A DNA stretch of 32,744 bases from Chrysochromulina tobinii. Taxonomy: Eukaryota. The number at the start of each line of letters is the position of its first letter. Position 1 is the stretch's first letter. Shown here piece by piece: positions 2-31,865 of the stretch. The DNA is taken from positions 1 to 32,744 of the forward strand of contig JWZX01002791.1 in NCBI GenBank assembly GCA_001275005.1, given 5' to 3'. Below the pieces are notes generated by a model. The model was not told where the DNA came from and ran no database searches. It saw only the letters and a list, made by a program, of their open reading frames with translations. Made by a program: the position numbers and the translations under genes.

Positions 2-228
2 TCTCCTCCTCCTCCATCGCCGCCACCACCTTCGCCACCACCGCCCAAACCGCCTCCCTTTCCTCCGCCTCCATCCCCGCCTCCATCCCCACCGCCTTTA
101 CCACCTCCATCGCCACCGCCGCCATCTCCGCCTCCCAATCCGCCGCCTCCTAGCCCCCCGCCACCCCTACCACCGCCTCCCTCTCCGCCGCCCCCCTCTC
201 CGCCGCCACCCTCTCCACCGCCGCCTTA
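2..228 (+). repeat. Ser-Pro3-4 (extensin/pherophorin-like) coding repeat
   Basis: CCN-codon-rich tract encoding SPPPP units; further Pro tracts at ~505-640, ~1055-1270 and ~4090-4125. Confidence 0.9.
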
Positions 229-3200
229 CGCCCCAGCGACCTTTTCCCTCTCACTCTCCATCGAAATCCCCATCTCCTCCCTCAGCCCGGGTCTAACCGC
301 TTCGGACTTGATGCGCCTCGTCAACGCTCAGGGGCGCCAAGTTGCCTCCGCCTCTGCTCAGGTCAGCACAACCATCACCCAGGTGGCCACCGGTGGACTC
401 AGGCTGCCCGATGGCCTCATACTGGGCAACGGAGCCACACAAGATGCGGTGCTTCCAGCGGTCTGTGGCGACGACCCCAGCTGCACGGTTACAGTCACTG
501 CGTTCGTGCCTCCGCCGATGCCGCCACTACGTCCCCCTCGGTTCCCGTTCCCTGGTCTGCCTCCACTACCGCCAGACTTGCCGCCACCGTCTCCGCGTGT
601 GCCACCGCCCCCCGGCTTGCCACCCTCCCCGCCACCTTCACAGCCGCCGTGGTGGCTCGAGCGGCGCCTCTCCGAGCAGCACGCAGCCGGACATAGACGC
701 ACACAGGCGGCACAAGCGCACTCGAGCGACTGCTTTGCCACCGTGACGTCGCGAGTCCTTGGGCCAACGGTGCCTCTGATCCAACCACCGCCCCTCAGCT
801 TGCCCATGCTCGAATCTGAGCTTAGCATGCCACAGGGCTCTTTTGGCACCAACGGCTGTGCCGGGCTACCCCAGCAGCCGGCACTGACGAGCATTCAGCT
901 CACACTGCTCATTGTCGACCGAGGCTCACAAGTGCAGTCGCGGCTGGCCCACGGGCAGCTGCAGGCCTCCAGCCTTCCCATTCTCATCGCACTGAGCAAC
1001 TTGACTAATACCAGCCTCCACTTGTTCACCATCCTCGAAACCGCAGCGGCCATCACGCCGCCCGCGCCGCCCCCGCCGCCACCGCCATCGCCGCCTCCGC
1101 CTCCGCCCTCCCCGCCTAGCCGACCGCCGCCACCCCTGCCTCCGGCGCCGTGGCACAAGCCATATCTGTTCAGATACCTACCGCCGTCGCCACTCCCACC
1201 ATTGCCGCCGAAAGCCCCCCCGCTCTCACCGCCACCACCCGTACCCCCCTCGCCCCCGCCCCAGCCACCCACCTATTGCTATCCACTGTATGGACGTGGC
1301 GACTGCTCGGAGCACGACTACTGCCTTGCTGCGCAGGGCCGTGGACGGTGCGTGGGTGGCCGTTGCGAGTGCGCCGCAGGCTTCTGCGGTGCCAACTGCT
1401 CGGGCATCGTCCTATGCCATTACTGGGATGAGCTCACGTGGCAGTGGTCCATGCAAGGAATGACGACACTCCATACCATCGGCCAGGCCATTGTATGCGA
1501 AGCGGACGACGTGCCGGCGACTGCATTCGCCGGCGTCTGCGTCCTCGGCGCGCCCACACCGCCACCTTCGCCGCAAGTCGAAGCCGTCGCTCTTCCTCCT
1601 GCAAGTCTCTTTGACGGTTCGAGAGCGTCCGCCGTGGCGATCGTGCTCTGCACACTCCTCAATGGGATCACCGTTCGTCGTGCTCGTCAGTGGCGCCAGT
1701 CGCTGCTCCCCGCGAGCTTGAAAGATCCGATGTGGTCGGACATTTTGGTGCTGTGGTTCTTCATGGGCGTGTACGCAAGCAAGCGCGTCCTGACGACGGT
1801 CGTGCTCGCATGCATCGAGTTTCGGAGATGGACTTGGGAGCTGCTCAAACGCTGCGCGATCACCTCAGTGCTCGCCGGGCTTGCGATCGCATGCTGGATC
1901 TGGGGCTGCCTGGTGGAGACGGCATCTATGACGAAACGCACAGTCACCAACGTGATGCTCGTCGTCTTTTGGATTGGCATGTGGACCAAGCAGACGACGT
2001 TCGCTTGCATTCATCTAGTGCGCGGCAGTGCCATTACAGCCGCGCTCGGCCTCAAAGCTCTCACCGTCTTGATCGCCCTCGAGTCGAAACGTACGGTCAC
2101 GAACGCCATGCTGGCCATCTACTGGCTTGGCATGTACATCACGAATGCCATCAAAGCCAAGGTGCTCAAGCTCAAGGCCGCGTACAAGGCAGCGAAGGAG
2201 CGACGTCGTATGGCGAGGGAGAGGCGGGCAGCCGAGCGCAAGGCGGCAGCCGAGCTGCGGGCAGCTGAGCAGCGCAGGGTGCAGGACGAGAGAAGGCGGA
2301 AGATGGAAGCGGAGCTCAAGCGCAGGGAGAAGGCATACGTATCCTATCCGAAGCAGAAGAAGGGCCCAGTTGCCATGGTTTCACCCTCATGGAGGTGGAG
2401 TGATGTCGAAGACGAGGTGGCCAAAGAGGATCTGCCGCTGGACGGGCCCAGCCGCGCTCAGAGGCCGACGTACCCATCCCCGTACATGGCGTCGACGGAA
2501 GAGGACACGACAGTGCGCGAGCTGCAGGCAGAGGCGGAAGCCAAGGCCATCAAGGCAGACGCAGTACGCGCCCGTGTCGTCGAGCTGCAGGAGCAGCTCA
2601 CCAATGGCATCCTCACGCTCGAGGGACGCACAGAGCTTCAGCACCAGGAGGCGCTGCTCAAGGAGCTCAATGAGGCGGCGGACAAGGCGGCGGCGGCGGC
2701 GCACTTGGCGGCACACACGGCTGCCGCGGTCAAGCTGCAATCGATCCAGCGCGCCCGCTCGTCGCGCACGTCGAATCCGGCCGCCGCTCATGGCGAGGTG
2801 GTCAACGGGCCTCTGACTCGCGACGAGCGCGACGCTCTCATCGCCGCAATCATTGCGGAGGGACATGCACATGGGCAGCGGCACGGGCTGGCGATTCCGC
2901 CGCTCAGCAGCACCCGCGTGCATGCGGTCCCGATGCACATGGCCAGTCGGCCAATTGAGCTGGTGAACGGTCAGCTGACCAAGGCGCGCACGCCCATCAT
3001 CACACTCGACCTCGCCGAGCTACGCGGTGGCTTGCTGGTTGAGCCTGACTCTGCCCGCCTCGAGGCTGGCGTGTGGGAGGAGGCTGTGCTGCGGGCTAGC
3101 CCAGATCGCTCCCGGTTGATGACGGGTCGCATCTCTATGGCGGCGTTTCTCCAGCAGGATCCATGGGGGGCTGCCCGACCCACCTCGGCCGCATTGGACT

Positions 3201-6200
3201 CAGCGCGCGGCATTTCGGAGACAGAGGTCGCGAGCACGAGTGAAGGCAGCGGCTCCAGCGCCCGCGAGACGCCCCGATCTCGCGTAACGTCTCGAGCTGC
3301 ATCTCGAGCTCCGAGCTCCGAGCTGCCCGAGGTGCAATCTCGTCCTCAGTCTGCTGCATCAGTGCTCGGTACTTCGCGCTCTCAATCCGCCCTCGAGGCA
3401 CCGCGTGCCGAGGCACCGCGTGCCGAGGCTCAGCTCTCGCGTAAGCGCCTGCAGATGGCCCCTCTACCCGTTGACATCAATCGCCCCCAGACGGCGGGCG
3501 CAGGCCAGCGCCCGAGCATACGCCCGAGAACGGCAGGTTGTGAGCGACCTTCCGATCCCTCGTCGGCAGCGTGTGGCAGTGGAGCCCCCCAGCTCGTCCG
3601 TAGGCGCATGCCCATGGACCCTCAATTACTGCAGGGGCCCACCTCGTTTGCTTGCCGAGGGCCCACACCCTTCGCCGAAGCCCTTGGCCGTACCGGTACG
3701 GGCGGGCCGAGTGGCACTGGCTCTGGCACTGGCTCACTCCCTCGGCCGCAGAGCTCGCCTGGGTTACTTCCACAGCGGCTGCAGGCCGCCTCGCAACCCA
3801 ACCCAAACCTGGCGTTGCTCGACGTGCAGATCGATCACTACCCCAATTCTCTCGAGCATCCGGAGTACGAGGGCTACGCGTACGAGCCGGCCCGCATCCG
3901 TGCCCGGCTCGCACTGAGCGGCCAGCTCATCCGCGGGCGCATGATGAGCCAAGCAGACCCTGGCTTTCTCTCGCGCCCCGCCTCGAGCACAGTAGTCGCC
4001 TCGCGCGCGAATGCGTGGGCAGCCGATGGCGGCAGCTCCCAAGCGTCCACACGGCCGGGCACGCCGACGAGCGCCTTTCCGTCGCTCGCCGCTCCTCCCT
4101 CGCCGCCGCCCTCGCCGCCACAACAACCCGAGCTCCCGCCGTTGCGCGACGGCTCGAACCGGCCGCCGTTCCCACAGTCGCAGCCCTCCACAGCCCCCCG
4201 CCAGCCCCCCGCTGCGGCCCTTGCCCGACCCAGCTCGACCTCTGGCCAGCCGCTCCCGAGGCCTCTCAGCCGCCCGGGCTCCGCTGGCCTCTCACGTAGC
4301 CTGAGCGTGGCCGCTCTGACAGGGCTCGTCCACTTGGACGAGCCCGGGGTTCTCGACAGCCCGCGCAAGGGGCTACAGAGTGGCAGCTCGGGATGCACCG
4401 AGGTGATTACAAGCCATGCCAACGGCTCTATGATTCGCAATCTCTCCCGCCCCTCCTCAGCCGCTCGCCTCCAGCCGCTCGTGTCGCGCCCATCATCGTC
4501 CCGCTTCGGACCACCGCCCGCGTCCGCAGCCTCGCGTGGGGGGCGGCTCGAGCTCGATCCGCTCGGCATCCACCGCCAGCAGCAGCAGCAGCAGCGGCAG
4601 CAGCCTTCACACGATCAGTCGCCGCAAGGCTCGGCACGTAGCACCCAGGACAACGCTCCTTCTCGTACCGCCTCGACCTCTCGTCGCCTCTCGCACGCCT
4701 CTGCACCTCAGCCCGCCTCGCCGCGCCTCTCTTTGCACAGCAGCGACGACATAGTCGACTCTCCGATCGTGACGCCAATCGTGACGCCTCGAGGTCCATC
4801 GGAGGGCGTCGACCTTGAGGCGAGCGTCGACGAGATGCAATGGGACGAGATGCGATTGGACGAGATCGCAATCTCGAGTGCAACTCCGGCTGCTGGTGGC
4901 GTGCGCGTGGCAGCCTCCGCGTGGCACGAAAGGGAGGTCGAACGAGAGGCTGAGCGGAGCGATGTCGAAGCAGGCGAGAGCAGGGCTCCTGCTGCCGCGG
5001 AGGCTGAATGGGCTTCTAACGTGGCTGTCGACGCTGGATCTCCACGTACTTCAAATGAGGCAAGCGCGGCGCGCGGCGCGTCGGAAGCCGACGAGGCGGC
5101 TCGGCAGCGCTTAGTGCTCCAGACGACGCTGGCGAGCAGCAGCCATCGTAACTCGGACGTCTTGAGAGCTGTCTTGAGTGAGGCCAGCGATGGCCACGAA
5201 GCTGTCTTGAGTGACGAAGCTGTCTTGAGTGACGAAGCTGAGGTGTCGCCTGCTCGCAGCGACGTGGATGAGCAAAGCGAGGGTCACGGCGACGAGGGAG
5301 GTGCTGAAGAGTATGACGACCCGGGTGAGCACGACAAGGGTATCCGCAGCCGCGTCGAGGCACCTGTCGAGGACCCAAGAGTCGAGGACCCAACGGTCAA
5401 GTCGTTTACCGGCGAGCTGCTCAAGCACGTGCTCTCGCCCTTGGCTTGCTCGACCCTCACGTGCCACCTGAACGAACACGCCAAGGCTAACGAGGGGCAC
5501 GATCTGCGCCTCAAGATCACGCGGCCGGAGCTCGAGCAGCTGATTGGCCTCGAGGAAGTTGGTAGGGTGGTGGCCGCTTTCGGCGCGCCCTTCGACACCC
5601 TCAAGTTGAGTTCGGTTCGCCCCATGAGCGCGACAGTGCGGCATGAGCGAACCGCCGTCGCAGCCGCCGCCTATGAGCTCGCTACGGAGCCTACGCTGGA
5701 CCTCGAGCAGCAGATCGAGGGGAGATTGGGAAGTGGTGAGGCGGAGGAGGCCGAGGAGGCCGAGGAGTGCGAGAGGGCCGCTGCGCGCGCATCCGTCGAG
5801 GCGACCGAGTCGGCCGAGGCGACCGAGTCGGCCGAGGCGACCGAGGCGCACCGGCTCAAGGCAGCGCTCGAGACGATGCCTTTCTTCTCGATCCCGATGC
5901 TTGCCCTACGAGGCTGCTCGGCTGAGTACGTCGACGCCCTCGCGCGCTGGCACACCGTCTTCGCCATCGTGTGCCAGCCACACCCAGCCACCGGCACACA
6001 CCCTCTGATCGACCTCGAGCAGCAGCTGCAGTGCTTCTGGAGCCATCTGATGCTCGAACTCGGCGCGGTCGCTCTGCTTGCGACAGCACACGGGAGGGAT
6101 GCCGACGAGGCGCTCGAGGAGCAGCTTGGTGCGATCTCTTTCACGGCGGCCATCGCGGCAGGCGTGTGCGGCCTTGCTGTGAGTCGCGTCGCCTTTGTCA

Positions 6201-6955
6201 TCGCTGGGCCCGCGGGCCGTGTACGGAGCACCAGGGCCGTTACTACTCCCACTACTCCCACCGCCGGCGAGCGCCGCGCGCCAAGCGTGTGGACGCCGAG
6301 TATCTTGAACCCGAGCCCCTGGGCCCGTGCGGCTGGACCCGAAGTTGAGGACGTCTGGGCGTACCGGCACTGGGCGTCCACTACGGCGCCACGCAGGCGT
6401 GAGTTTGCGCTCCGCGCGCTTCGCTCCGCCGGCGGCTGGCTGGTTGCATGGTCGATCTTCGCCGGTGGCGCCACGCTCGCGCGTGGGTGCATGATGGGCA
6501 CCTCGGGACGTCGAGCCAGCGCCGTGCTCCGCGGCTGGGCCCTCTCCCAGGCTGTCTCGTGGGCTCTCGTGGAGCCTGCTGGGGTGGCTCTCGCGCTCGT
6601 GGTCTTCTACGCGCCCTTATGGTGGCCTCGTCTTCTCACGTACGCCTTCGGGCCCATCGGGTGGATGCAGCGCAACAAGCTCCCGACCGCCCGCGCGCTC
6701 CTGATGGCGCCTGTGCTGCCACGGCTGCGCTTACGACTTGAGGCGCGCCCAACTCGGCGCTCATCGCGTGCCAAGGTCGGACCGAGCTCCTCTGAGGGAG
6801 ATCTTCCGCTGGCGACCTCCTCGGCGGCTGAAGATCCGAGCTCCGGTGACGACGCTCCTTGGACCTTCTTTGCTACGCCTATCGGCATCGTGCGCGGTCG
6901 CCTCGGGCTGAGGCGCGCTCCCCGCAAGTATAGGATTCATGCCGCCCCAATGTGA
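2..6955 (+). CDS. 5'-partial proline-rich, EGF- and GPS-like, polycystin-1 (PKD1/PKDREJ)-like multi-pass membrane protein
   Basis: The frame is open from base 2 (SPPPPSPPPP...) to TGA at 6953-6955, so the ORF-track start at 308 is not the true start. EGF-like Cys pattern ~1304-1400; GPS-like CHYWD...WSMQG...C...TAFAG ~1416-1545; hydrophobic segments ~1625-2140; C-terminal HTVFAIVC...EQQLQCFWSHLMLELGAVALL and GWALSQAVSWALVEPAGVAL resemble PKD1 TM2 and TM5. Confidence 0.75.
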   Translation, partial: SPPPPSPPPPSPPPPKPPPFPPPPSPPPSPPPLPPPSPPPPSPPPNPPPPSPPPPLPPPPSPPPPSPPPPSPPPPYAPATFSLSLSIEIPISSLSPGLTASDLMRLVNAQGRQVASASAQVSTTITQVATGGLRLPDGLILGNGATQDAVLPAVCGDDPSCTVTVTAFVPPPMPPLRPPRFPFPGLPPLPPDLPPPSPRVPPPPGLPPSPPPSQPPWWLERRLSEQHAAGHRRTQAAQAHSSDCFATVTSRVLGPTVPLIQPPPLSLPMLESELSMPQGSFGTNGCAGLPQQPALTSIQLTLLIVDRGSQVQSRLAHGQLQASSLPILIALSNLTNTSLHLFTILETAAAITPPAPPPPPPPSPPPPPPSPPSRPPPPLPPAPWHKPYLFRYLPPSPLPPLPPKAPPLSPPPPVPPSPPPQPPTYCYPLYGRGDCSEHDYCLAAQGRGRCVGGRCECAAGFCGANCSGIVLCHYWDELTWQWSMQGMTTLHTIGQAIVCEADDVPATAFAGVCVLGAPTPPPSPQVEAVALPPASLFDGSRASAVAIVLCTLLNGITVRRARQWRQSLLPASLKDPMWSDILVLWFFMGVYASKRVLTTVVLACIEFRRWTWELLKRCAITSVLAGLAIACWIWGCLVETASMTKRTVTNVMLVVFWIGMWTKQTTFACIHLVRGSAITAALGLKALTVLIALESKRTVTNAMLAIYWLGMYITNAIKAKVLKLKAAYKAAKERRRMARERRAAERKAAAELRAAEQRRVQDERRRKMEAELKRREKAYVSYPKQKKGPVAMVSPSWRWSDVEDEVAKEDLPLDGPSRAQRPTYPSPYMASTEEDTTVRELQAEAEAKAIKADAVRARVVELQEQLTNGILTLEGRTELQHQEALLKELNEAADKAAAAAHLAAHTAAAVKLQSIQRARSSRTSNPAAAHGEVVNGPLTRDERDALIAAIIAEGHAHGQRHGLAIPPLSSTRVHAVPMHMASRPIELVNGQLTKARTPIITLDLAELRGGLLVEPDSARLEAGVWEEAVLRASPDRSRLMTGRISMAAFLQQDPWGAARPTSAALDSARGISETEVASTSEGSGSSARETPRSRVTSRAASRAPSSELPEVQSRPQSAASVLGTSRSQSALEAPRAEAPRAEAQLSRKRLQMAPLPVDINRPQTAGAGQRPSIRPRTAGCERPSDPSSAACGSGAPQLVRRRMPMDPQLLQGPTSFACRGPTPFAEALGRTGTGGPSGTGSGTGSLPRPQSSPGLLPQRLQAASQPNPNLALLDVQIDHYPNSLEHPEYEGYAYEPARIRARLALSGQLIRGRMMSQADPGFLSRPASSTVVASRANAWAADGGSSQASTRPGTPTSAFPSLAAPPSPPPSPPQQPELPPLRDGSNRPPFPQSQPSTAPRQPPAAALARPSSTSGQPLPRPLSRPGSAGLSRSLSVAALTGLVHLDEPGVLDSPRKGLQSGSSGCTEVITSHANGSMIRNLSRPSSAARLQPLVSRPSSSRFGPPPASAASRGGRLELDPLGIHRQQQQQQRQQPSHDQSPQGSARSTQDNAPSRTASTSRRLSHASAPQPASPRLSLHSSDDIVDSPIVTPIVTPRGPSEGVDLEASVDEMQWDEMRLDEIAISSATPAAGGVRVAASAWHEREVEREAERSDVEAGESRAPAAAEAEWASNVAVDAGSPRTSNEASAARGASEADEAARQRLVLQTTLASSSHRNSDVLRAVLSEASDGHEAVLSDEAVLSDEAEVSPARSDVDEQSEGHGDEGGAEEYDDPGEHDKGIRSRVEAPVEDPRVEDPTVKSFTGELLKHVLSPLACSTLTCHLNEHAKANEGHDLRLKITRPELEQLIGLEEVGRVVAAFGAPFDTLKLSSVRPMSATVRHERTAVAAAAYELATEPTLDLEQQIEGRLGSGEAEEAEEAEECERAAARASVEATESAEATESAEATEAHRLKAALETMPFFSIPMLALRGCSAEYVDALARWHTVFAIVCQPHPATGTHPLIDLEQQLQCFWSHLMLELGAVALLATAHGRDADEALEEQLGAISFTAAIAAGVCGLAVSRVAFVIAGPAGRVRSTRAVTTPTTPTAGERRAPSVWTPSILNPSPWARAAGPEVEDVWAYRHWASTTAPRRREFALRALRSAGGWLVAWSIFAGGATLARGCMMGTSGRRASAVLRGWALSQAVSWALVEPAGVALALVVFYAPLWWPRLLTYAFGPIGWMQRNKLPTARALLMAPVLPRLRLRLEARPTRRSSRAKVGPSSSEGDLPLATSSAAEDPSSGDDAPWTFFATPIGIVRGRLGLRRAPRKYRIHAAPM

Positions 6956-9359: not shown

Positions 9360-9705
9360 CACTGTTGCAGCTGAAAGCCAGCCTTTCCTTTGTTACACTG
9401 CGTTACGAATCGAGGTCTCCCCTTCCTCTGTCTCAAGATAGGTGTAACGAAGACTGCGCAGCAAATTGGTCAATGTATGATCAATCACTTTGCGAAGCGT
9501 TACCCGGGTATCTGGATAAGCAGGTATGCAGGGAAGTTTGAAATCTGCTGGGCAAACTTACTCAATTTTTGTCAGCGCGGGTCTGATCGCGCCGGATGCC
9601 ACAGAGCGAGATACCCTTCTGCTTGGCGACTTCAGCGAGCATCATGGCGGACTCCGCATCAAGCTGATTGCCCAGGAGGTTGGCCAGCGTCAGCCCGCCA
9701 TTAAC
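9360..9705 (-). pseudogene. decayed LRR-gene fragment (partial repeat, intron and C-cap exon)
   Basis: VNGGLTLANLLGNQLDAESAMMLAEVAKQKGISLCGIRRDQT is nearly identical to the repeats of the adjacent gene. It joins out of frame to ALTKI(D), then a GTAAGT...GCAG intron (9561-9454), then LRYTYLETEEGETSIRNAV-stop (TAA 9395-9393) and a frameshifted KGKAGFQLQ. Confidence 0.75.
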
Positions 9706-9736: not shown

Positions 9737-12700
9737 TCAGAGTGCCAAGTGGGAGGGGGCGCCTCGCCATGCGTTTCGGAGGGCTTGCTTGGCTTGTTTA
9801 TCGAGGTCATTGTACTCAAGGCTGCGCACACACAGAGGGTGCGTTGTCGGGTTGCAAAGAGCAGTGGGGTCAGAGAGGCCTCAATTCGATTAAGTTTGAG
9901 GCGAAACGTACCATATTTCGGTCAGCGCGCCTGTGACGGTCGTGCGGAGCGCCTCGGCGATCAGCTTGCCTCCAACAAGGCCGATGTTCTCGTAATGCGC
10001 GTCCATAGACATAATCTCGCTGTCCTTGTTGCCGCAGATGGCGGCAAAGATGGCGCCCCAACCCTCATCCCTGAGCTGGTTGCCCCTGAGGTCGACGGAC
10101 GTCAATGTGCTGTTGACGCCAAGCATCTTGGCCACATGTTTGGCGCCTGCTGACCCTCCGATGTTGCTGCCATAGTTGCTGCCATAGTGGCTAATGTCAA
10201 GCTCCTTAAGCGTCTTGTTCTGTTCTAGTGCCTCGCAGATGGCTTTGGTGCCCTCCTCCCCCAACCTGTTTTTGGCTAGGGACAGCATCGTCAGCGCGCC
10301 ATTAACGCGCAGGGCGTCGGCGATTGCAGTGATGCCCTCTGCGGTGTAGGTGCCTTGTTGGCCGTCTCTCTCGGTTTCCCAGATGCCACACAGACGGTTT
10401 TTGGAGAGGTCGATGCTTGTCAGCCCGCCTGTGACAACGGCCTGTGACAGGTCCGACGCCAGCAGGACGGCATCGGTCGGCATGAGGATGTGCTGGTCGG
10501 AGAAGTCAGCGGTGGTCTGGTCGCGCCGGATGCCGCAGAGCGAGATGCCCTTCTGCTTGGCGACCTGAACGAGCATCTTGGCGGACTCCGAATCAAGGTG
10601 ATTGTCCAGGAGGTTGGCCACCGTCAGCGCGCCATTACCGCGCAGGGCCTCGGCGATTGCAGAGATGCCCTCTGCGGTGTAGGTGCCTCGAAGTTCTCCA
10701 AATATAGTTTCGATGCCGCACAGCTGGTTTCGGGAGAGGTCAATGCTTGTCAGCCCGCCTGTGACAACGGCCTGTGACAGGTCCGATGCCAGCAGGATCG
10801 CATCGGGCGGCCCGAGGCTCTTGCATTGTTCCTTGGATGTGGTCTGGTCGCGCTGGATGCCGCAGAGCGAGATGCCCTTCTGCTGGGCGACTTCAGCGAG
10901 CATCTTGGCGGACTCCAAATCAAGGTGATTGCCCAGGAGGTTGGCCACCGTCAGCACGCCATTACCGCGCAGGGCCTCGGCGATTGCAGCGATGCCCTCT
11001 GCGGTGTAGGTGCCTCGAAGTTCTCCAAATTCAGTTTTGATGCCGCACAGCTCGTTTCCGGAGAGGTCAATGCTTGTCAGCCCGCCTGTGACAACGGCCT
11101 GTGACAGGTCCGATGCCAGCAGGATGGCATCGGGCGGCCCGAGGCTCTTGTATTGTTCCCCGGATGTGAAGTCAGCGGTGGTCTGGTCGCGCCGGATGCC
11201 GCAGAGCGAGATGCCCTTCTGCTGGGCGACTTCAGCGAGCATCATAGCGGACTCTGCATCAAGCTGATTTCCCAGGAGGTTGGTCACCGTCAGTGCGCCA
11301 TTGACGCGAAGAGCATCAGCGATGGCGTTGATGCCCTCTGCGTTGTAGTTGCCTTGCTGCGTGCCATTGCCGTCAATCCAGATGCCGCACAGCTGGTTTC
11401 GGGAGAGGTCGATGCTTGTCAGCCCGCCAGTGACAACAGCCTGTGACAGGTCCGACGCCAGCAGGATCGCATCGGGCGGTTTGAGCTCGCCGCGGAACCA
11501 CCCCGTTGCGAGCATGTCCTCGAGCACGCTGTCCACCGAGAAGTTAGCGGTGGTCTGGTCGCGCCGGATGCCGCAGAGCGAGATGCCCTTCTGCTTGGCG
11601 ACCTCAGCGAGCATCATGGCGGACTCCGCATCAAGATGATTGCCCAGGAGGTTGGCCACCGTCAGCCCGCAATTAACACGCAGGGCGTCGGCGATTGCTG
11701 TGATGCCCTCTGCTGTGTAGGTGCCATGTGGGTCGCCATGACGGTCAGTCCAGATGCCACACAGCTGGTTTCCGGAGAGGTCCAAGCTCGTCAGCCCGCC
11801 CATGGAAGGAATGAGATAAGAAATGAGCATGGCCGCAGGCCCTTGGAGCCCCTCATTACACAAGTTCAGCTCCCCGGCACGAACGCGATTCTTGAATAAA
11901 TAACCCCATTCATCCTTCTTGAGGAGAGAAGGGACGTCCTGTAGAGTGTCCTCCCGCATATGCTGCACCGGAACGCGGCATACCACACCTGAGCCCGCAC
12001 AGGCAACGGCTGCGATCGTCAGCTTCAACGGTGCTTCTCCGTCGCCTGATATGCAGCTTTCGAGAGCAGCCTTAGCAGTACCACGAAGCAACGAAGCTGG
12101 CGGCGGCAAAGCGGCACCAAAATGACTCGCCTCCTGGACGCCCAGATTCGCGGCCCGTACTTTCGCCACGTCCACCACAAAGCCGTAGCCATGGAGGCGC
12201 GCCAGCCCTGGCAGCATCCGCCCCGCTAGGGCCGTGTCCCCCGGACGGCCGGCCTTGATGAGCAGCTCAACGTCCAGGTCGGTGATCGCTTCCAGATGTG
12301 TGGGTGCCGGATGTCCGCGGCCGCGGCACAGGCGCGAGCAGAGGACACGCCGTGACAGCGCACGCCAAAACCGATTCACGCCCTTGAGCTCGCACAGCGT
12401 GGCCACGTCCACAAGGGCCAGAGCAGCCTCCTTGGCATCCTCCGTGGCTGGCACCGCCGAGAGCGAGGGCTGCCGCAGAGGTACGGGCGGTGCCGAGGAG
12501 CTGGCCGCGCCGAGCTGCTGCGGCGCCTCGTAGCCTTCTGGTACAAACGCCGGCTCAGCGAAAGCCTCCGCGCGCTCCTCCGCGCCATCAAAGTCACTAC
12601 TCGCGCCTAGCACCACGCAGAGGTCGTGAGCGCGCTGGCCGTTGAGCCGTGGCGCGATCGCACGCTGGATGTGCTCGAGCGCCCTATTGGCGTCGAGAAA

Positions 12701-13009
12701 GAGGGCACCCTCGACGAGCTCCATGAGCTGCGGCATCGAGCACTCGTCGACACTTGGCCGTGTGGAGTCAGGATCACTCAGCTTCCCCAGCAAGTCAAGC
12801 GTCCAGGCCGCAATTTTTGGCACCGGGTACACGTCATCCTCGGGAGGGGCGTCGTCCATAAGATCCTTCAAGGTGCCCGCATTTCGCGCGGCCTTGCGCG
12901 GCCACGTGACCTCTTCTCCCCCTCGCGCTCGCACGCGGATTCGCTCGTCGGCCGTGCCCGTTGTAAGAGCGTCGGTTGCGCTGGTGCCGAGTGCGTCGCG
13001 TGCGGCCAT
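9737..13009 (-). CDS. Skp1-like + F-box + RI-like leucine-rich repeat fusion protein, join(13009..9912, 9821..9737), ~1060 aa
   Basis: First ATG is at 13009 (the ORF-track start at 13135 is GTG). Skp1-like region ~12945-12550 (RIRVRARGGEE...GTLKDLMDD...YPVPKI; LMELVEGALFLD...RLNGQRAHDLCVVLGASSDFDGAEER); F-box-like PATEDAKEAALALVDVATLCELKGVNRFWRAL ~12455-12330; LRRs of the LTSIDLSRNQL type from ~11870. Splicing gives a typical LRR cap, ALTEICLEYNDLDKQAKQALRNAWRGAPSHLAL-stop. Confidence 0.85.
9822..9911 (-). other. 90-nt phase-2 spliceosomal intron
   Basis: Donor TG|GTACGT at 9911, CTGAC branch-like motif, acceptor TGCGCAG|C at 9822; removal restores the LxxIxLxxNxL pattern. Confidence 0.85.
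10290..11800 (-). repeat. tandem LRR super-repeat (3 LRRs per unit; units of 372, 342, 327 and 330 bp plus a partial fifth)
   Basis: GGLTS(I/L)DLS anchors begin at 11800, 11428, 11086, 10759 and 10429, with high nucleotide identity between units. Confidence 0.9.
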
Positions 13010-13055
13010 CGCGTCAGCACGTTGCGGGACAAGGCGCTTGAAAGTGATGGGCAAT

Positions 13056-13091
13056 GCTCGGAAGATGTTCCGCGCTCGGAAGATGTTCCGC
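13056..13091. repeat. 18-bp direct repeat x2 in the divergent intergenic region
   Basis: gctcggaagatgttccgc occurs twice in tandem, ~50 bp upstream of the Skp1-F-box-LRR ATG. Confidence 0.8.
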
Positions 13092-13413: not shown

Positions 13414-16400
13414 ATGGCCCTTGAGTGTCATGTCGACTCGCCCCTCAGGCACCTGCTATTGCGAAGCCCGGATGTGCCCTCGCCACTCAAGCGTGCACGC
13501 GACGACGACGACGACGACGACATCCTTTTTGTGGGCGAGAAGACCCGTGCGGAACGCGATGCTGAGCTGCTGGCCAATGCTGTCGACGTGGAGGATTGGA
13601 GCACAGCGAGCTCTGGGCCGTCGCAGCCACTCACAGGGAACTCGCCGTGGCAGCCGATGCCAACGCCGCGAGTGAAAATTGAGAGAGGCGATAGTGCTGG
13701 TCCTGAGCGACCGCCTGCGTTGGTGCGTCCAGCAGCACGGCTGGCCCAGCCACCGCTGCCCATGGGTGCGCTGGACGAGGACCAGCGCCACGCTCTCCAA
13801 GTGGCTCTGCTGGGCCACGACGACGACGACGACGACATCCTTTTTGTGGGCGAGAAGACCCGTGCGGAACGCGATGCTGAGCTGCTGGCCAATGCTGTCG
13901 ACGTGGAGGATTGGAGCACAGCGAGCTCTGGGCCGTCGCAGCCACTCACAGGGAACTCGCCGTGGCAGCCGATGCCAACGCCGCGAGTGAAAATTGAGAG
14001 AGGCGGCGATAGTGCTGGTCCTGAGCGACCGCCTGCGTTGGTGCGTCCAGCAGCACGGCTGGCCCAGCCACCGCTGCCCATGGGTGCGCTGGACGAGGAC
14101 CAGCGCCACGCTCTCCAAGTGGCTCTGCTGGGCTCGAATCTCTTCCTCACCGGCGGAGCCGGCGTGGGCAAGAGCTTCACGCTGCAGCAGATCATCAGTC
14201 ACCTCGTCGCAAAGCACGGCGAGCGTGCGGTGGCGGTCACGGCTACCACGGGATGCGCGTCAGTCCACATCGACGGCCAGACGCTGCATTCGCTCGCGGG
14301 CGTCGGCGTGCCGCAGCACGTGGCCGACTTTGGGCGGCTGTGGGGTTTCTCGTCCGAGGGGGCCAAGGCGACAGCGTGGCGCGAGATGAAGGTGCTCATC
14401 ATCGACGAGGTGAGCATGCTCGATGCCGAATTCCTCGACCACTTTTCCATCGCGGTGGACCGCACCATCAACTACGCCGCGATCAAGGCGGCCGAGGAGG
14501 CGGCCGAGGAGCGGCGCGCGCGGCTCTTCGGTGGCGGCGTGCAGCTGATCGTCTGCGGTGACTTTTTGCAGCTCGCTCCGGTGCGTAGGACGTACGCACA
14601 GAACGCGGCTACTACACGTGGCGACAGGCTGCCGTCGTTGCGCGAGCCGCCGCAGCACGGCCGTGGCGGCGCCGCCCCCAAGCGTGCCTACGGCACTGTC
14701 GAGACGAGTGGCCAGCCGGCCTTCAAGTCGGTCGCGTGGCAAGAGGCGGGCTTCAAAACGGTCGAGCTTCGCACAGTCCACCGGCAGCGGGAGCCGACCC
14801 TTCTCCGGGCGCTCAATGACGTGCGGGTGGGCCAGGCCACAACAGAACACGTGAAGGCACTCTTGCGCCACACACGACGGGAGCTGCCGCAGCCCGGCGC
14901 GAGCCGCAGCGCTGACAGCGAGGACTGCAGCGAGGAGCGCACAGAGCCCGTGCGCCTCTTCTGCACCAACGCGCAGTGCGAGTCGCTCAACACGGCAAAG
15001 CTCGCGCAGGTGCTCGCGAGCTCGGCGCGCTGGGACCACCTGGCACAAGATTGGGTCGAGCTGGACCCCGAGGCAGTAGAAGAGGAGCTGGAGCGGCGAC
15101 CTCGCACATTGCCCACGCTCCTCAAGGCAGAGGGTGTGGGGACCGACTCGTCGCGTGAGACGATCCGCACATTGTGTGCGCCCTACGGCAAGGTGATCTC
15201 AGTCGACTTGGAGCGCGCCACGTCCGAGGCCACAGTGCGCTTCGAAGCCGCGGAGGGTGCGGCTTCAGCGCTCAGGGCGCTGCGCGGCATGGGCACGGAT
15301 GTGGTCGCGACGTGGCGCCGACCTTCGGTGCTCGAGTCCATCACTTGGGAGCTCGAGCAAGAGTTATGGGACTGCTTCTTTGCCGACGACGACGTGCACG
15401 TCCCTAAGCAAAAGACGCTGGCCGTGGGCGCGCAGGTGCTACTCACCAGCAACGAGACGCCTGGCGGCTTTGTCAACGGCGACTTGGGTCAAGTCGTCGC
15501 CTTTCGCCAGCCGTTGGCCGAAGAGCTGCGCAAGCTCGAGGAAGAGGGTCGGCCGTTGACGGCCGACGAGACGGTACATTCGTACCCGGTGGTACGGTTC
15601 CGGCGATCCAACCGCCGTGGTGAGCGCGAGCGGCTGGTGCTGCCGTGCAACAAGATGCGCCGAGTCTACCGTGTTGGCAGGGGCATCCGTCGTCAGCTGC
15701 CGCTCACGCTCGCTTGGGCGATCACGGTGCACAAATCGCAAGGCATGTCTCTCGATGCGCTGCAGTGTGAGCTTGGGAATGCCTTCGCGCCTGGCCAGTG
15801 TTACGTCGCACTAAGCCGTGCCAAGACGCTCGCCGGCCTGTGCATCAAATCGTTCGATGCAGAGACGGTGCGCCGGAAGCTTTCACACGACGCCATTCGC
15901 TTCCACGATGCAGTGCGCGCCCAGGCGGCGGCGGAGGCGGCGGCGGCAGTGCCAGCGCCAGTCGGCCGTGGCGGCGACGATGGCAAGGGCCCCCTGGCAG
16001 AGTTCTACGAGCGCGCCCACTTTTGGTGGAAAGAGATTGTTGAGGGCCCGAACACGCATGCCCAATGGCCGACCGTCTTCGCAGAAGACGATGGCTCCGA
16101 AACACCCTTCGGTACAACCTTTGCAACTGAGTGGCGGCGGTGGGTGGCGACATATCCGGTGCCAGAAAGGCTGTGTGCATTTCCAAACACCAGAGCGGAG
16201 GGGCGGTCAGCCTCGCTCGACCGCCGCGAGCTCGACATGCAGCTGCTCGAACACCGCTTCAAACAACAGGCGCCTTGGAACGTGTGCTCACCGTCTGAGT
16301 GTGCGCCCAACTCGATACCGCCCGGCCCACCCTCCTCTATTGGCAGCAGCAGCCTACGCGGCAGCGATGGCGGTGGTGCTGGAAGCGATGCTGGGAGCTC

Positions 16401-16800
16401 GATGGGTGGATGGGGTCGTGGGAGCTCGAGGGCGGGCTCGGAGGTGGCCTCGGACGCAGTCGCAACCTCGCTGGCCCGCGATGGCGGAGGAGGCGGCGAA
16501 GGCGGAGGCGGGCCAGCCATAGAGCCCGAGCCTGACTGTGTGCAGTATGCCGTCACGGGACCTGCGGTCGTGGAAGATTTTCCAGTCCTTGAAGATCTTC
16601 CACGACCAAGGATGGCAAGGAGCTTCTTCAATGTCACTGAGTCGGATGCTTTGAGCGCCACGGGGTTGTTTACCGAATCATCGAATCTGGAAGGAAGTCC
16701 CTGGCAAGTTCCGCTCGATATCATGAACATCGCGAGCTCAGCTCAACTCGAAAGCATTGCTGAGGAAGACGAGAGGATGGGTGCACCACCGTGTGCGTAG
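13414..16800 (+). CDS. PIF1: PIF1-family 5'-3' DNA helicase
   Basis: Motifs LFLTGGAGVGKS, TATTG...GQTLHSLAG, LIIDEVSML, FGGGVQLIVCGDFLQLAPV, LRTVHRQ, VGAQVLL, VNGDLGQV, RQLPLTLAWAITVHKSQGMSL and GQCYVALSRA, in the expected order. Confidence 0.93.
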   Translation: MALECHVDSPLRHLLLRSPDVPSPLKRARDDDDDDDILFVGEKTRAERDAELLANAVDVEDWSTASSGPSQPLTGNSPWQPMPTPRVKIERGDSAGPERPPALVRPAARLAQPPLPMGALDEDQRHALQVALLGHDDDDDDILFVGEKTRAERDAELLANAVDVEDWSTASSGPSQPLTGNSPWQPMPTPRVKIERGGDSAGPERPPALVRPAARLAQPPLPMGALDEDQRHALQVALLGSNLFLTGGAGVGKSFTLQQIISHLVAKHGERAVAVTATTGCASVHIDGQTLHSLAGVGVPQHVADFGRLWGFSSEGAKATAWREMKVLIIDEVSMLDAEFLDHFSIAVDRTINYAAIKAAEEAAEERRARLFGGGVQLIVCGDFLQLAPVRRTYAQNAATTRGDRLPSLREPPQHGRGGAAPKRAYGTVETSGQPAFKSVAWQEAGFKTVELRTVHRQREPTLLRALNDVRVGQATTEHVKALLRHTRRELPQPGASRSADSEDCSEERTEPVRLFCTNAQCESLNTAKLAQVLASSARWDHLAQDWVELDPEAVEEELERRPRTLPTLLKAEGVGTDSSRETIRTLCAPYGKVISVDLERATSEATVRFEAAEGAASALRALRGMGTDVVATWRRPSVLESITWELEQELWDCFFADDDVHVPKQKTLAVGAQVLLTSNETPGGFVNGDLGQVVAFRQPLAEELRKLEEEGRPLTADETVHSYPVVRFRRSNRRGERERLVLPCNKMRRVYRVGRGIRRQLPLTLAWAITVHKSQGMSLDALQCELGNAFAPGQCYVALSRAKTLAGLCIKSFDAETVRRKLSHDAIRFHDAVRAQAAAEAAAAVPAPVGRGGDDGKGPLAEFYERAHFWWKEIVEGPNTHAQWPTVFAEDDGSETPFGTTFATEWRRWVATYPVPERLCAFPNTRAEGRSASLDRRELDMQLLEHRFKQQAPWNVCSPSECAPNSIPPGPPSSIGSSSLRGSDGGGAGSDAGSSMGGWGRGSSRAGSEVASDAVATSLARDGGGGGEGGGGPAIEPEPDCVQYAVTGPAVVEDFPVLEDLPRPRMARSFFNVTESDALSATGLFTESSNLEGSPWQVPLDIMNIASSAQLESIAEEDERMGAPPCA
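13501..14133 (+). repeat. near-perfect in-frame tandem duplication (315/318 bp) in the PIF1 N-terminus
   Basis: 13501-13815 repeats at 13816-14133; by eye the copies differ only by GAC vs CAC at the first codon and one extra GGC codon. Confidence 0.95.
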
Positions 16801-27846: not shown

Positions 27847-28619
27847 GCATCTGCTGAGCATGCGAACCGCGTCGAGCCTGGCAGGCGACAGCCCGCGGCA
27901 CGCCTCAGGCTCGTAGTGCTCGGCTGTGTTGCAGGAGGTGTTTAAGTGCGTGCCGTGAGTGTGAACCTGCGTCCCAACTGTTAGCGGCTGAGGTAACATG
28001 GTGCCTCCTCCAGGTCTGTGGAGGTCGAGAGAAAAAGGTATTCGGGTGCCCCCCCCCCAGCGCGGGCCCCCGCCCCACGCGCGCCAGCCCCACTCGTCCC
28101 GTCCGTGACGCCATTATGCCGGTGGGCCACGATGAAACCGAACTCTGCGAACACGCGACGAGGACAACAGGGTCCGCCTACAGCAATCAGCATACCTGTA
28201 CGCTGCAAGACCTGAGGGCGCGGAGTGACGCTCGAGACTCACAGTCGTCGAGTCGTGAGCGGTTGTGTTGACCTACGTAGGGTCCCTACGGCATAGAGAG
28301 TGGCGTGTTCAGATTCAGTGGCTTTCTGCCCTGGGCCTTTATTATGGTTGCGTCGGGAGGAACAGGGGCTCCACACGCTGCGTCTGAAGGGAGAGCGAAT
28401 TAACGTGAAGAACGTGAACGTGCACTCGCACATGGCGAAAGTGAAACGGCTGTCCGCACGCAGGAGGCGTTCAGTGGCGCGTCGCGGTCGTTCGGTTTTC
28501 GTGCACGTGGGCGGTCTGGTGCCGCGCCGCTGTTTGCGTGCGCGCGGGACGCAGCCCACGCTCGTGGTGGGTGAGTTCGTAGCTCCTGCAGCCGCAGGCG
28601 CGGAAGCTCCGCCGTTACG

Positions 28620-31600
28620 ATGGCGATGTTTCTACAACCATGGACACTGTCAAAAATGAAGACAAACGCCGCCGCTTTTGCCGAGCAAGCACGTGCAAAA
28701 GTCAGGCACCGTGCCCTTGCAAGACACCGAGACAAGATCGTGACGCAGGCCAAAAGCGCCGAAGACATTGATAAGATCAAATATCAAGACCAGGGCAACG
28801 AGGAGTTGAACACCGAAGAGGCGTTCGAAGCACGTGCAAAAATCAGGCACCATTCACTTGTCCTCGATGCACTCAACGAGTGGTGGGCCGTCGTTCAGAA
28901 GTCGGCTGTGGCGCAAGGCTATTCGGTGTCAGAAATGTGCCAGCAGCAGTACATGCAGATTTACCACCTCCTCTACTACGACCTGCTTGGTAAAGAAGAC
29001 TATGATGAGAAGGAAGCCGACTCTGAGGGCCTGGAGGAGTGGACGAAGGACTCGGGTGGAGCTGGCACCATGGAGCGGGGCGCGTTCCTGGACGCCTTAT
29101 TCGAGGTGTGCGATGTATACACTGAAACCATGAATCCCCAGGACTACAGCGACTGGTTGAGAGCACTGCTCCGAAGGCTGTTGGGGCCGAACGGGTGCTT
29201 CATGCTCGCACCCCCTGGTTACAAGTCCTGGGCTGATAGGAAGGCGGCGGAAGAGGAGGCTGCGAGGAAGAAGGCTGAGGGCAAGGACGGGAAGGGCAAA
29301 GGAGGCAAGGATGGGAAAGGAGGCAAGGATGGGAAAGGAGGCAAGAAGGGTGGGAAGAGCGGCAGCGGCAGCGGAGGCGGAGGCGGGTCGGGCAGCGGAG
29401 ACGGCTTGAGCGACGAGGAGCGCGCCAGGCGTGCGGCCATGACGCCAGAGGAGCTCGAGGCGTACCTGAAATTGCTGGCCGGCATGTCCAAAGAACAAAA
29501 GGATGCCTGGGGATCCATGACGGATGAACAGCGCAATAAGCAATGGATTGGTGAGTGGAAGTCCGGCGGAACGGACGCTGGCTGGAAGCGTACCTTGAGT
29601 GATTCCGGCGGGTACGACGATGATTATTACAAGAAGGACAAAAGGGATGGAGGAGCGTGGAAAGCGGGCGGCACGGACAAGGGCTGGAAATCATCTGGCG
29701 GCGATTCCGGCGGGTACGATGATGATTATTACAAGAAGGACAAAAGGGAAGGAGGAGCGTGGAAAGCGGGCGGCACGAACGACGGCTGGAAGGAGGGCAT
29801 CAAATACTTGAGCGACGGCCCTTACGACGATCGGCCATCATCCCGAGATCGACCGTCATCCAGAGATAATGATGTCGGTGGGCAATGGCGTGGCGGCGCG
29901 GGTAGCAAGGGCTGGAGCGAAGGCTTCAAATACGAAAGCGGCGGCCCTTACGAGGATCGACCGTCTTCCCGCGAGCGACCTTCATCCCGAGATAAAGATG
30001 CCAAAGATGTCGGGAAAGGGTGGGGCAGCGGGGGTAACAAAGGCAAGTCTGGCTGGGACGATGGCTTCAAATACCAAAGCGACGGCCCTTATGACGATCG
30101 ACCGGCATCCCGAGGAGAAAGACCGTCATCCAAGGATGGACGAGGAAAAACCCCGCCCCGAGAACAAACCCCGCCATCCGGTCCTTTCCAGTCGACCGGG
30201 ATTGAATCCGGCCCAAACCAGTACGCCAAGTCGCACAGGAGGTCGTCCGCCTTGCCCAGAGTTAATGGCGACACAGGCGACGTAGGCGAAACGCCACACG
30301 TGTATGGCGAAGCAGTGCGGGACCCCAAGAGACCTTGGCGAGACACGAGCCCCTCGAGCCCACGCACGGGAGGCATCAACTACATCGAGCCTTCTCAGTT
30401 AGATGCCTGGGGAACGCGACAGGGGAAAAGACCAGACGGGGACGAGCCACCCCAGCTACCGGATCTAGATCCTCCGGGAGTGCTCTCGTACGGCAAACGG
30501 CCGGGGAGTCCTGAGGAGGTTCATAGGCCGCCACACGTTTATGGTGACAGCATGCGGCATCCCCGTAGTGTTCGACGCGGACCGATCCGCGACACGCCTC
30601 GGCTCGTGAACCGGCAGCAGTCCATGCGGGAAGCCATTCGTGAGCTGGAGACTCGGCTCATCACCCGACAGGAGTCCTTGCGGCAAGCCGTCCGTGAGCT
30701 GGAGCGAAAAGGGCACGAAGCGCCGACAGCGGAGGACCTTGTCCGGGAAGTTCCCGAGTACGTGCCAGCGCGCGACATCCCACGCTACGTTGAGTATACG
30801 CGCCATCCTCGCAGTGAGAGCAGGTCGCCATCACCACCGCGTGGCGCCTCGCCAAAGCGTGATGCCTCGCCCGGGCAAAGCGTGCCCTCCCGTCGAGCTC
30901 GCGAGGCCCCATGGCGGCAATCCCCTCGCGAGACTGAGGTGCGTGCAGCCATCGCGGCTACGGCTCTTCCTGCCGAGCGGGCTCAGAGTGCATCTCAAAG
31001 AGGGCAAGGAGACGCTGCTGCATCTCGAGCCTCTACTCCTTCACGATCAGTCAGAGTCTACGACTCAAATGTGTCGAAGCCTTCAACTCCTCCACGCGCT
31101 AATCAGATGGTCAAGACCCCAGTCCTCCTGGATGGACCATCGGACCTGTCTGTATGGGCGGCGCCGGCTGCAGCGCCGGCGCAGGCGTCATCGTTTGACA
31201 AACGAGGGCACGCGCTGAGCTTAGGTGATGTGCCATTTGCAGCGCACAAAAATGCGACATACAAGACTCCGTCCCTGACGGTGCTGGGCGGTGGCTCTCC
31301 AATTAAGGCGCCGAGCTCAGATTTAGGTAGCGCGAAGCCAGGATTTCAGTTCGCCTGCTTACAACGTAAGTCACCGAAGTGGGGCTTGCTGCCACGGGCC
31401 GAGCTCGAGAAACGGGGTCTGACAGAGGAACCACCGCTCCCCCCTCCGGCGACCCTCTCTGCCGACGTGCCCTTCGGGCTTCTGTCGCCAGTTGCGACGC
31501 GGCCGCAAACGTCCTGGTCAATCAGGCCCTCTACAGTCGTGGATGCGAGAGACACTCAGGGCGTAATGGCTCTGGCTCGAGCGGCGGTGCACCTTGAACA

Positions 31601-31865
31601 GGAGATCCGCAAGGTTGGAACGCCCGTCCTGGTGACGGCAGGAGACGCCAGCAAGCGGACGAGCTCATATGCCACACTTGGGCTTCAGGTCAGAGCGCTT
31701 CCTCGTCCACAGTCGCAAGGCGACATGAAGACGTCGCCACGTTTCTCAGTGCTGCGCTCCCCGCGAGAGGTCTTTCACAAGCTGACAGGGTCTACGTCTT
31801 CTCCGGCCCTTCCACCCCGGATCTACGTGAAGAGATCGCAATCTCCTCCAAGATCTATGCCATGA
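28620..31865 (+). CDS. large protein with an EF-hand-like N-terminal domain, G/K/D/W/Y repeats and a disordered S/P/R-rich tail
   Basis: Uninterrupted 1081-codon ORF; EEWTKDSGGAGTMERGAFLDALFEVCDVYT is EF-hand-like. Start is 28620, 28626 or 28656. Confidence 0.75.
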   Translation: MAMFLQPWTLSKMKTNAAAFAEQARAKVRHRALARHRDKIVTQAKSAEDIDKIKYQDQGNEELNTEEAFEARAKIRHHSLVLDALNEWWAVVQKSAVAQGYSVSEMCQQQYMQIYHLLYYDLLGKEDYDEKEADSEGLEEWTKDSGGAGTMERGAFLDALFEVCDVYTETMNPQDYSDWLRALLRRLLGPNGCFMLAPPGYKSWADRKAAEEEAARKKAEGKDGKGKGGKDGKGGKDGKGGKKGGKSGSGSGGGGGSGSGDGLSDEERARRAAMTPEELEAYLKLLAGMSKEQKDAWGSMTDEQRNKQWIGEWKSGGTDAGWKRTLSDSGGYDDDYYKKDKRDGGAWKAGGTDKGWKSSGGDSGGYDDDYYKKDKREGGAWKAGGTNDGWKEGIKYLSDGPYDDRPSSRDRPSSRDNDVGGQWRGGAGSKGWSEGFKYESGGPYEDRPSSRERPSSRDKDAKDVGKGWGSGGNKGKSGWDDGFKYQSDGPYDDRPASRGERPSSKDGRGKTPPREQTPPSGPFQSTGIESGPNQYAKSHRRSSALPRVNGDTGDVGETPHVYGEAVRDPKRPWRDTSPSSPRTGGINYIEPSQLDAWGTRQGKRPDGDEPPQLPDLDPPGVLSYGKRPGSPEEVHRPPHVYGDSMRHPRSVRRGPIRDTPRLVNRQQSMREAIRELETRLITRQESLRQAVRELERKGHEAPTAEDLVREVPEYVPARDIPRYVEYTRHPRSESRSPSPPRGASPKRDASPGQSVPSRRAREAPWRQSPRETEVRAAIAATALPAERAQSASQRGQGDAAASRASTPSRSVRVYDSNVSKPSTPPRANQMVKTPVLLDGPSDLSVWAAPAAAPAQASSFDKRGHALSLGDVPFAAHKNATYKTPSLTVLGGGSPIKAPSSDLGSAKPGFQFACLQRKSPKWGLLPRAELEKRGLTEEPPLPPPATLSADVPFGLLSPVATRPQTSWSIRPSTVVDARDTQGVMALARAAVHLEQEIRKVGTPVLVTAGDASKRTSSYATLGLQVRALPRPQSQGDMKTSPRFSVLRSPREVFHKLTGSTSSPALPPRIYVKRSQSPPRSMP
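29280..30135 (+). repeat. coding repeats: GKGGKD (18 bp), 102-bp DSGGYDDDYYKKDKR...WKAGGT x2, GWxxGxKYxSxGPYxDRPxSR x3
   Basis: gattccggcgggtacga recurs at 29601 and 29703; GPY(D/E)DRP units near 29815, 29945 and 30085. Confidence 0.85.

Follow-up and report, generated by a model that had tools for sequence, protein, structure and literature searches.

What defines SCF ligases is one Skp1 common to many competing F-box proteins; CUL3, by contrast, relies on BTB adaptors made of a single chain. BTB-Kelch proteins have been called single-chain analogues of Skp1/beta-TrCP, and their 3-box is oriented unlike the F-box (PMC3597819). Engineered Skp1-TIR1 fusions, in which Skp1 is joined to an F-box-LRR protein, were reported to function in fission yeast, if only modestly (10.1101/2021.07.19.452993). 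Full-text searches, mostly of literature outside subscription journals, brought up only the engineered fusions and the BTB-CUL3 analogues, and no Skp1–F-box fusion of natural origin. Neither Skp1 nor F-box occurs, by term counts, in the main text of the genome paper of C. tobin or in that of Phaeocystis globosa.

The fusion gene described here lies in a window of 32,744 nt from Chrysochromulina tobinii (assembly GCA_001275005.1, contig JWZX01002791.1, positions 1 to 32,744). The Skp1–F-box–LRR fusion is real, and it is apparently an undescribed variant of the SCF architecture. Like SCF-FBXL complexes (Skp1–Skp2, Skp1–TIR1, Skp1–FBXL17), it has a full Skp1 fold with an F-box behind it and LRRs that likely bind the substrate. 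It differs from them in being one chain, in an F-box without Leu-Pro, in an unnamed domain between F-box and LRRs, and in that each fusion paralog carries its own divergent Skp1. The order of parts (Skp1, F-box, LRR) is that of the engineered Skp1–TIR1 proteins of the fission-yeast auxin degron; those are artificial, with canonical Skp1 and F-box, whereas the present fusion is natural, diverged and multi-copy, and provides a model from nature for building degron receptors in one piece. With the BTB-BACK/3-box adaptors of CUL3 (KLHL, SPOP, NPR1) it shares the union of adaptor and receptor in a single chain, and its model partly superposes on them. Unlike these adaptors, it has the C-terminal helices of Skp1 itself and a true F-box homolog instead of a 3-box, and before its strand, which starts near aa 22, the N-terminus is short and modelled with low confidence. 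A BTB domain followed by a 3-box or BACK was not what was found, the best matches being Skp1 and the helices after Skp1 being F-box homologs. The initial annotation had compared the protein with BTB-CUL3 adaptors; the fusion would function like such an adaptor but is not one, its parts being those of SCF, without the stand-alone and Leu-Pro features. A natural, selected and multi-copy fusion of this kind breaks the division between shared Skp1 and single-chain BTB. The C. tobinii entries named 'protein NLRC3', 'NOD3' and 'S-phase kinase-associated protein, partial' (KOO32438.1) are members of the fusion family. These labels reflect the LRR or the Skp1 part only, and there is no NACHT among the Pfam matches; a set of haptophyte genes at present called NLRC3-like is re-labelled by this finding.

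Gene structure and genomic neighborhood

The minus-strand frame is open from an ATG at 13009 to 9893, giving an ORF of 1039 aa in which the Skp1 and F-box motifs quoted in the initial annotation are present. Unspliced, the interval 9737-13009 holds three internal stops. Removal of a GT..AG intron of 90 nt (9822-9911, minus strand) yields a protein of 1060 aa without stops that ends at 9737, and a joint of the same length is seen in one polyA contig of a relative. The gene thus has two exons on the minus strand (13009-9912 and 9821-9737), which encode the Skp1-like domain, linker, F-box-like domain, unnamed domain and LRR array; in the spliced model the last exon (9737-9821) supplies the final LRR strand and a capping helix. 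A leader of about 60-70 nt (13010-13075, minus strand), likely the 5' UTR, is common to close paralogs at other loci, and upstream similarity among close copies extends over about 60-70 nt only. In another copy (L010, upstream of about 1360) the sequence switches beyond the shared leader, possibly at a chimeric join, and presumably reads there as a MutL-type ORF. Downstream of the gene, the stretch 9360-9705 (minus strand) holds a relic LRR unit (9571-9705) and a GT donor at 9561, and may include a dead last exon; RNA contigs of relatives join into it, and it is probably an older 3' end of the fusion gene.

The window contains no N. The same locus (L002) is present in a second assembly, with flanks 99-100% identical and the gene 98% identical. 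Divergent from the fusion gene lies a PIF1-like helicase (13414-16800, plus strand) with an inserted RRM and a near-perfect N-terminal duplication of 315 nt; among 75 loci, this flank is common to L001 and L002 only. Short tandem repeats mark two very long low-complexity open frames on the plus strand, one of 2317 aa at 2-6955 and one of 1096 aa at 28575-31865.

The fusion ORF is covered by contigs of seven RNA runs and of one run of unknown kind. The passage from Skp1 to the start of the F-box is bridged by contigs at 12414-12815 (run X1) and 12447-12718 (run X14, polyA), and the X14 contigs tile 11994-13035, the farthest point reached in the leader, with overlaps of 30 nt. Since these contigs are a few percent divergent from the window sequence, they show expression of relatives, not of the window copy. 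The upstream stretch without RNA coverage is locus-specific and hence gives no control for DNA carry-over.

Skp1-like domain

A full-length Skp1-like domain, including the C-terminal F-box-binding helices, spans aa 21-157 (12539-12949, minus strand). The query alone gave no match to Pfam Skp1 or Skp1_POZ at the curated cut-offs, and against solved Skp1 it scored E=0.27, yet as the top match. Profiles built from the family matched Skp1 at E=5e-16 and about 1e-13, with Skp1 chains in 33 of the 39 rows of the latter. Individual relatives matched at E<=1 as well, 41 of 82 with Pfam Skp1 (best 1.4e-5) and 8 of 82 with Skp1_POZ (best 1.5e-8). The profile search proposed with the initial annotation was thus negative for the single query, which stays below the Pfam threshold, and positive for the family, and it is the family profiles that settle the Skp1 identity.

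The predicted model agrees. Its aa 21-156 superpose on Skp1 residues 1-160 with Z 14.0 and an rmsd of 2.4 Å over 133 residues, and Foldseek with the aa 1-370 model returned Skp1 chains only among the matches listed. In a wide structure search Skp1 (Z 12.6) came ahead of the best BTB (Z 11.3), so that the fusion, at Z 12.6-14.0, is nearer to Skp1 than to BTB adaptors. Both model and profile contain the BTB/POZ core and the C-terminal F-box-binding helices of the Skp1 family, and the earlier reading of a Skp1-like N-terminus with both subdomains holds over the whole length of the fold. In 177 proteins and at 47 of 75 loci an F-box is joined to it in frame, so the domain is not a stand-alone subunit. 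Its best-conserved part among 79 diverse fused homologs is the C-terminal helices, as seen at E152 (70/70), G124 (65/72), K125 (63/72), D139 (63/71) and F155 (61/70).

Linker and F-box

The Skp1-like domain is followed by a flexible linker of 28 aa (aa 158-185; 12455-12538, minus strand; pLDDT 60-73), close to the 30 aa or so first estimated. The median spacer of the relatives is also 28 aa. The linker is nearly neutral and, in relatives, a site of inserts and apparent recombination. Several family members carry inserts of 60-90 aa between Skp1 and F-box.

A degenerate F-box of three helices (aa 186-228; 12326-12454, minus strand) comes next, with D191 at acidic position 4 and without Leu-Pro. 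The query alone does not match Pfam F-box, and its homology to PF00646 and PF12937 emerges through relatives. A 40-sequence profile of the post-Skp1 region matched the GID2 F-box at E=0.012, and 7 of its 39 rows fell on the N-terminal part, six of them named F-box proteins and one an unnamed chain; a profile from 16 close relatives only gave four matches at E<=10, none significant. At E<=3, F-box-like was matched by 19 and F-box by 8 of 40 family members. Among 20 chosen relatives, P0229 and P0248 passed the Pfam cut-off for F-box (PF00646) and P0225 and P0248 that for F-box-like (PF12937). The two that pass for F-box are unfused homologs, and all three are reachable from the window's own N-terminus (E 1.5e-19, 5e-15 and 7e-20 among them). 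Structural comparison of aa 180-355 by Foldseek gave no match at E<=0.001, while the first 34 rows shown were Skp1/F-box entries except for three from PRC1.1 and cytoplasmic-lattice entries; the local fit of the F-box to 5ibk_E had an rmsd of 0.7 Å over 34 columns (E=1.4). In a wide search the top chain (Z 5.9) was unrelated, and an F-box came next (Z 5.0). The F-box-like motif noted initially after the linker is accordingly upheld by the family profile and the unfused homologs, although the evidence for it, drawn indirectly from relatives and predicted models, is weaker than for Skp1. At two other loci (L064:560-800 and L074:860-1060) an intron built of telomere-like hexamer repeats lies inside the F-box, with the same 6-nt word at both ends, and L067 is split at the same residue; to us these introns recall introner-type insertion.

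Unnamed domain and LRR array

Behind the F-box, always in this position, lies a conserved alpha/beta domain of about 125 aa (aa 229-355; 11945-12325, minus strand) that is modelled with confidence and has a variable loop at about aa 289-310. It has no Pfam match, and its fold, modelled within aa 180-355, had no clear structural match in searches whose lists were filled by F-box matches; it is added here as an unnamed domain. When 172 LRR tails were scanned with a profile of the domain, none held a genuine second copy, and an origin from degenerate LRRs is therefore unsupported. In four related loci (L055-L058) ORFs of 377 aa contain the unnamed domain without Skp1 or F-box matches.

The RI-like LRR array (9912-11878, minus strand; Pfam LRR_1 at E=1e-11, 12 strand motifs) consists largely of four super-repeats of 109-124 aa with variable loops. 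The many RI-like LRRs announced in the initial annotation are thus present, but they do not follow the F-box directly, the unnamed domain standing between. Differences among super-repeats cluster in loops and strand positions, with an overall dN/dS between repeats of 0.76. This value is not above 1, and the suggested immunity or surveillance role is conjectural. No NACHT or STAND NTPase was matched by Pfam in the 1039-aa ORF, whose first 355 residues are taken up by the cassette of Skp1, F-box and unnamed domain.

Family, selection and recombination

Homologs number at least 116 at the 90% level, with 269 representatives at the 50% level, and identity falls to about 34% among the 150 listed. 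Eight of the 116 are named to species, all as Chrysochromulina tobinii. Using family-built profiles, the complete cassette was found in 171 of 260 homologs, and F-box plus unnamed domain without Skp1 in 42, many of which are truncated gene calls. The order is Skp1 before F-box in all 177 proteins. At 75 loci, Skp1 and F-box lie in one stop-free frame in 47 cases and in separate ORFs in 8 (5 look broken); 4 loci have an F-box without Skp1, 7 Skp1 only and 9 the unnamed domain only. At L052-L054 no Skp1 was present within 0.4-1.2 kb upstream. The C-termini of 172 members were classed by motif count as RI-like (106), BspA-like (6), other (28) or short (32), with BspA LRR_5 confirmed by Pfam in 4 of 82; the same cassette hence precedes RI-like or BspA-type LRRs, and cassette copies that are 90-97% identical sit at other loci with other LRR arrays. 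The expanded family with variable C-termini that had been anticipated is borne out by these counts. Some members (P0053, P0010, P0019, P0025) carry further precomputed Pfam domains, namely PF02037, PF09070, ankyrin families and PF00533.

The window was compared in turn with 24 loci chosen among the 47 that have one open frame; in these comparisons, which are not independent of one another, dN/dS was 0.42 for Skp1, 0.48 for the F-box, 0.31-0.42 for the unnamed domain and 0.90 for the linker. Judged by these ratios, the cassette is under purifying selection. L017 and L029 are 64-72% identical in Skp1 and 96-98% in the F-box region, and L026 shows the reverse trend, which indicates that Skp1 and F-box halves were exchanged between paralogs. 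Fused and unfused states interleave in a quick unrooted tree, with 8 changes of which at least 4 are forced; descent from a canonical F-box ancestor by a single fusion is for this reason unsupported. Retroposition as the main route was rejected, since copies share the 3' intron and the 3' flank. Pattern scans of viral contigs and prokaryote genomes, which reach close relatives only, found no relatives, and the best cluster of the ESM Atlas (0.76) was below the lead threshold. A viral structure library returned stand-alone Skp1/BTB proteins. A search for shorter stand-alone relatives, confined to proteins of 30-69 aa, gave three fragments and no canonical haptophyte Skp1.

Skp1–F-box packing and cullin contact

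In SCF, the C-terminal helix of Skp1 is described as inserting between F-box and LRR (PMC13237083). Modelled over aa 1-370, the fusion reaches a pLDDT of 86 and a pTM of 0.84 despite the loose linker. A rigid superposition on the BTB/3-box of SPOP covers 143 residues of aa 18-228 (rmsd 4.1 Å, Z 7.3), and when BTB/3-box chains are superposed as single rigid bodies the match reaches into aa 199-239. Together with the conserved Skp1 helices, the long loose linker, the high pTM and these superpositions make packing in cis likely, and the F-box is predicted to pack intramolecularly on its own Skp1, as the initial annotation had proposed.

Contact with a cullin is less evident. In the F-box, Pro2 and acidic residue 4 are reported to contact Cul1, and a change of Pro to Ala to lower Cul1 binding of Skp2 and Fbxo4 markedly; beta-TrCP is reported to bind Cul1 without the proline, through Skp1, needing neither Pro2 nor acidic residue 4 (PMC3237615). 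Elsewhere the proline change is treated as weakening Skp1 binding (PMC5029927). Of 170 fused forms, 164 have D at position 4, and none has Leu-Pro with the Cul1-contacting proline; Leu-Pro is seen in 9 of 28 putatively unfused forms. The rows are related, so that a Fisher p value for this contrast is no real probability. The nine occupy four places of a quick tree of 71 rows (at least three forced by strong branches), each near fused forms, and a further analysis gave a similar picture. For seven Leu-Pro members the longest contig measures 0.85-2.5 kb. The Skp1 positions Asn49 and Asn108, which we take to be Cul1 contacts, are poorly kept. At the Asn108-aligned position N is found in 18 of 67 and L in the query, with an aromatic residue next to it in 56 of 68, and the Asn49-aligned position is rarely N among fused homologs. 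Helix capping alone could explain why D191 and the S/T/N at the proline site are kept. For the cullin recruitment proposed in the initial annotation, the contact positions give a mixed picture.

Proposed function and alternatives

We lean towards reading the fusion protein as a single-chain cullin adaptor-receptor. Its own F-box would fold into its own Skp1 within one chain, and the protein, a substrate receptor complete in itself, would then attach to a cullin, probably CUL1, with its LRRs predicted to select the targets for ubiquitylation. New specificities could then arise by duplication of the cassette and recombination of the LRR array, with no demand on the free Skp1 pool. This reading is favoured because the Skp1 fold extends over the whole length with its F-box-binding helices conserved, the model scores well and superposes on SPOP, the acidic residue at position 4 is kept, beta-TrCP sets a precedent without the proline, selection is purifying, varied LRR types follow the same cassette, and engineered Skp1-TIR1 fusions are reported to work modestly. 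The complete lack of Leu-Pro, the poorly kept Asn108 and Asn49 sites and the weak matches of the F-box fold count against it, and cullin binding and ubiquitylation by the fusion protein are to be expected with modest confidence. The same lack of Leu-Pro in fused forms, set against its presence in unfused ones at four tree places as if only the latter entered canonical SCF, agrees with a cullin-independent receptor, an LRR sensor for which the closed Skp1–F-box pair is retained as a base for folding or a module for oligomerisation. The F-box-facing residues of Skp1 are also kept far better than the presumed cullin-facing ones, and we regard this alternative as rather unlikely but serious. It is improbable that the protein is a decoy or trans regulator which, instead of degrading what its LRRs bind, damps or redirects SCF by binding cullin, by engaging other F-box proteins with its Skp1 part, or by forming a domain-swapped dimer. 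Skp1-fused AtTIR1 was reported to be toxic when strongly expressed (10.1101/2021.07.19.452993), and the swapping of halves between paralogs means that pairing is not private; a tethered F-box should, however, out-compete trans partners, and a pure decoy would give little reason for LRR arrays so large and diverse.

The remaining explanations deny a function or the gene itself. Close copies at unrelated loci, the 8 loci with Skp1 and F-box in different ORFs and the relic 3' end would suit a mostly non-functional, recently amplified repeat family, but the low dN/dS on the domains (0.31-0.48) beside that of the linker, intact homologs down to about 34% identity and RNA contigs with a spliced joint already largely refute it and leave it very improbable. 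A spurious merger of two separate genes, Skp1 and F-box, in assembly or annotation, for which nothing speaks beyond weak single-sequence scores, is refuted by the same locus in the second assembly, the one open frame at 47 of 75 loci, the invariant order of the two domains and the RNA contigs that bridge them. If the preferred reading of a single-chain receptor is carried further, a second kind of single-chain cullin adaptor may have arisen independently in haptophytes, namely a Skp1–F-box cassette multiplied into a repertoire of recombining LRRs that could plausibly survey proteins of viruses or parasites, with repeated switching between fused and unfused states and Leu-Pro tracking the unfused. 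This extension is possible, though doubtful; if true, the family would re-enact in living cells a way in which an SCF-like pair could give rise to BTB/3-box adaptors. The family in any case lets the effects of tethering be tested, such as Leu-Pro loss, drift of the cullin face and CAND1 exchange.

With a giant-virus cullin as query, no haptophyte cullin was named among the best 120 of 759 matches, which comprised stramenopile, plant and unnamed CUL1-like proteins. Giant-virus contigs themselves encode cullins at L076:3341-5383 (minus strand), L077:1599-3692 (plus strand) and L078:2097-4430 (minus strand), the first two being CUL1-like. On the first of these contigs, L076:510-1628 starts, as judged by eye, with an F-box-like motif.
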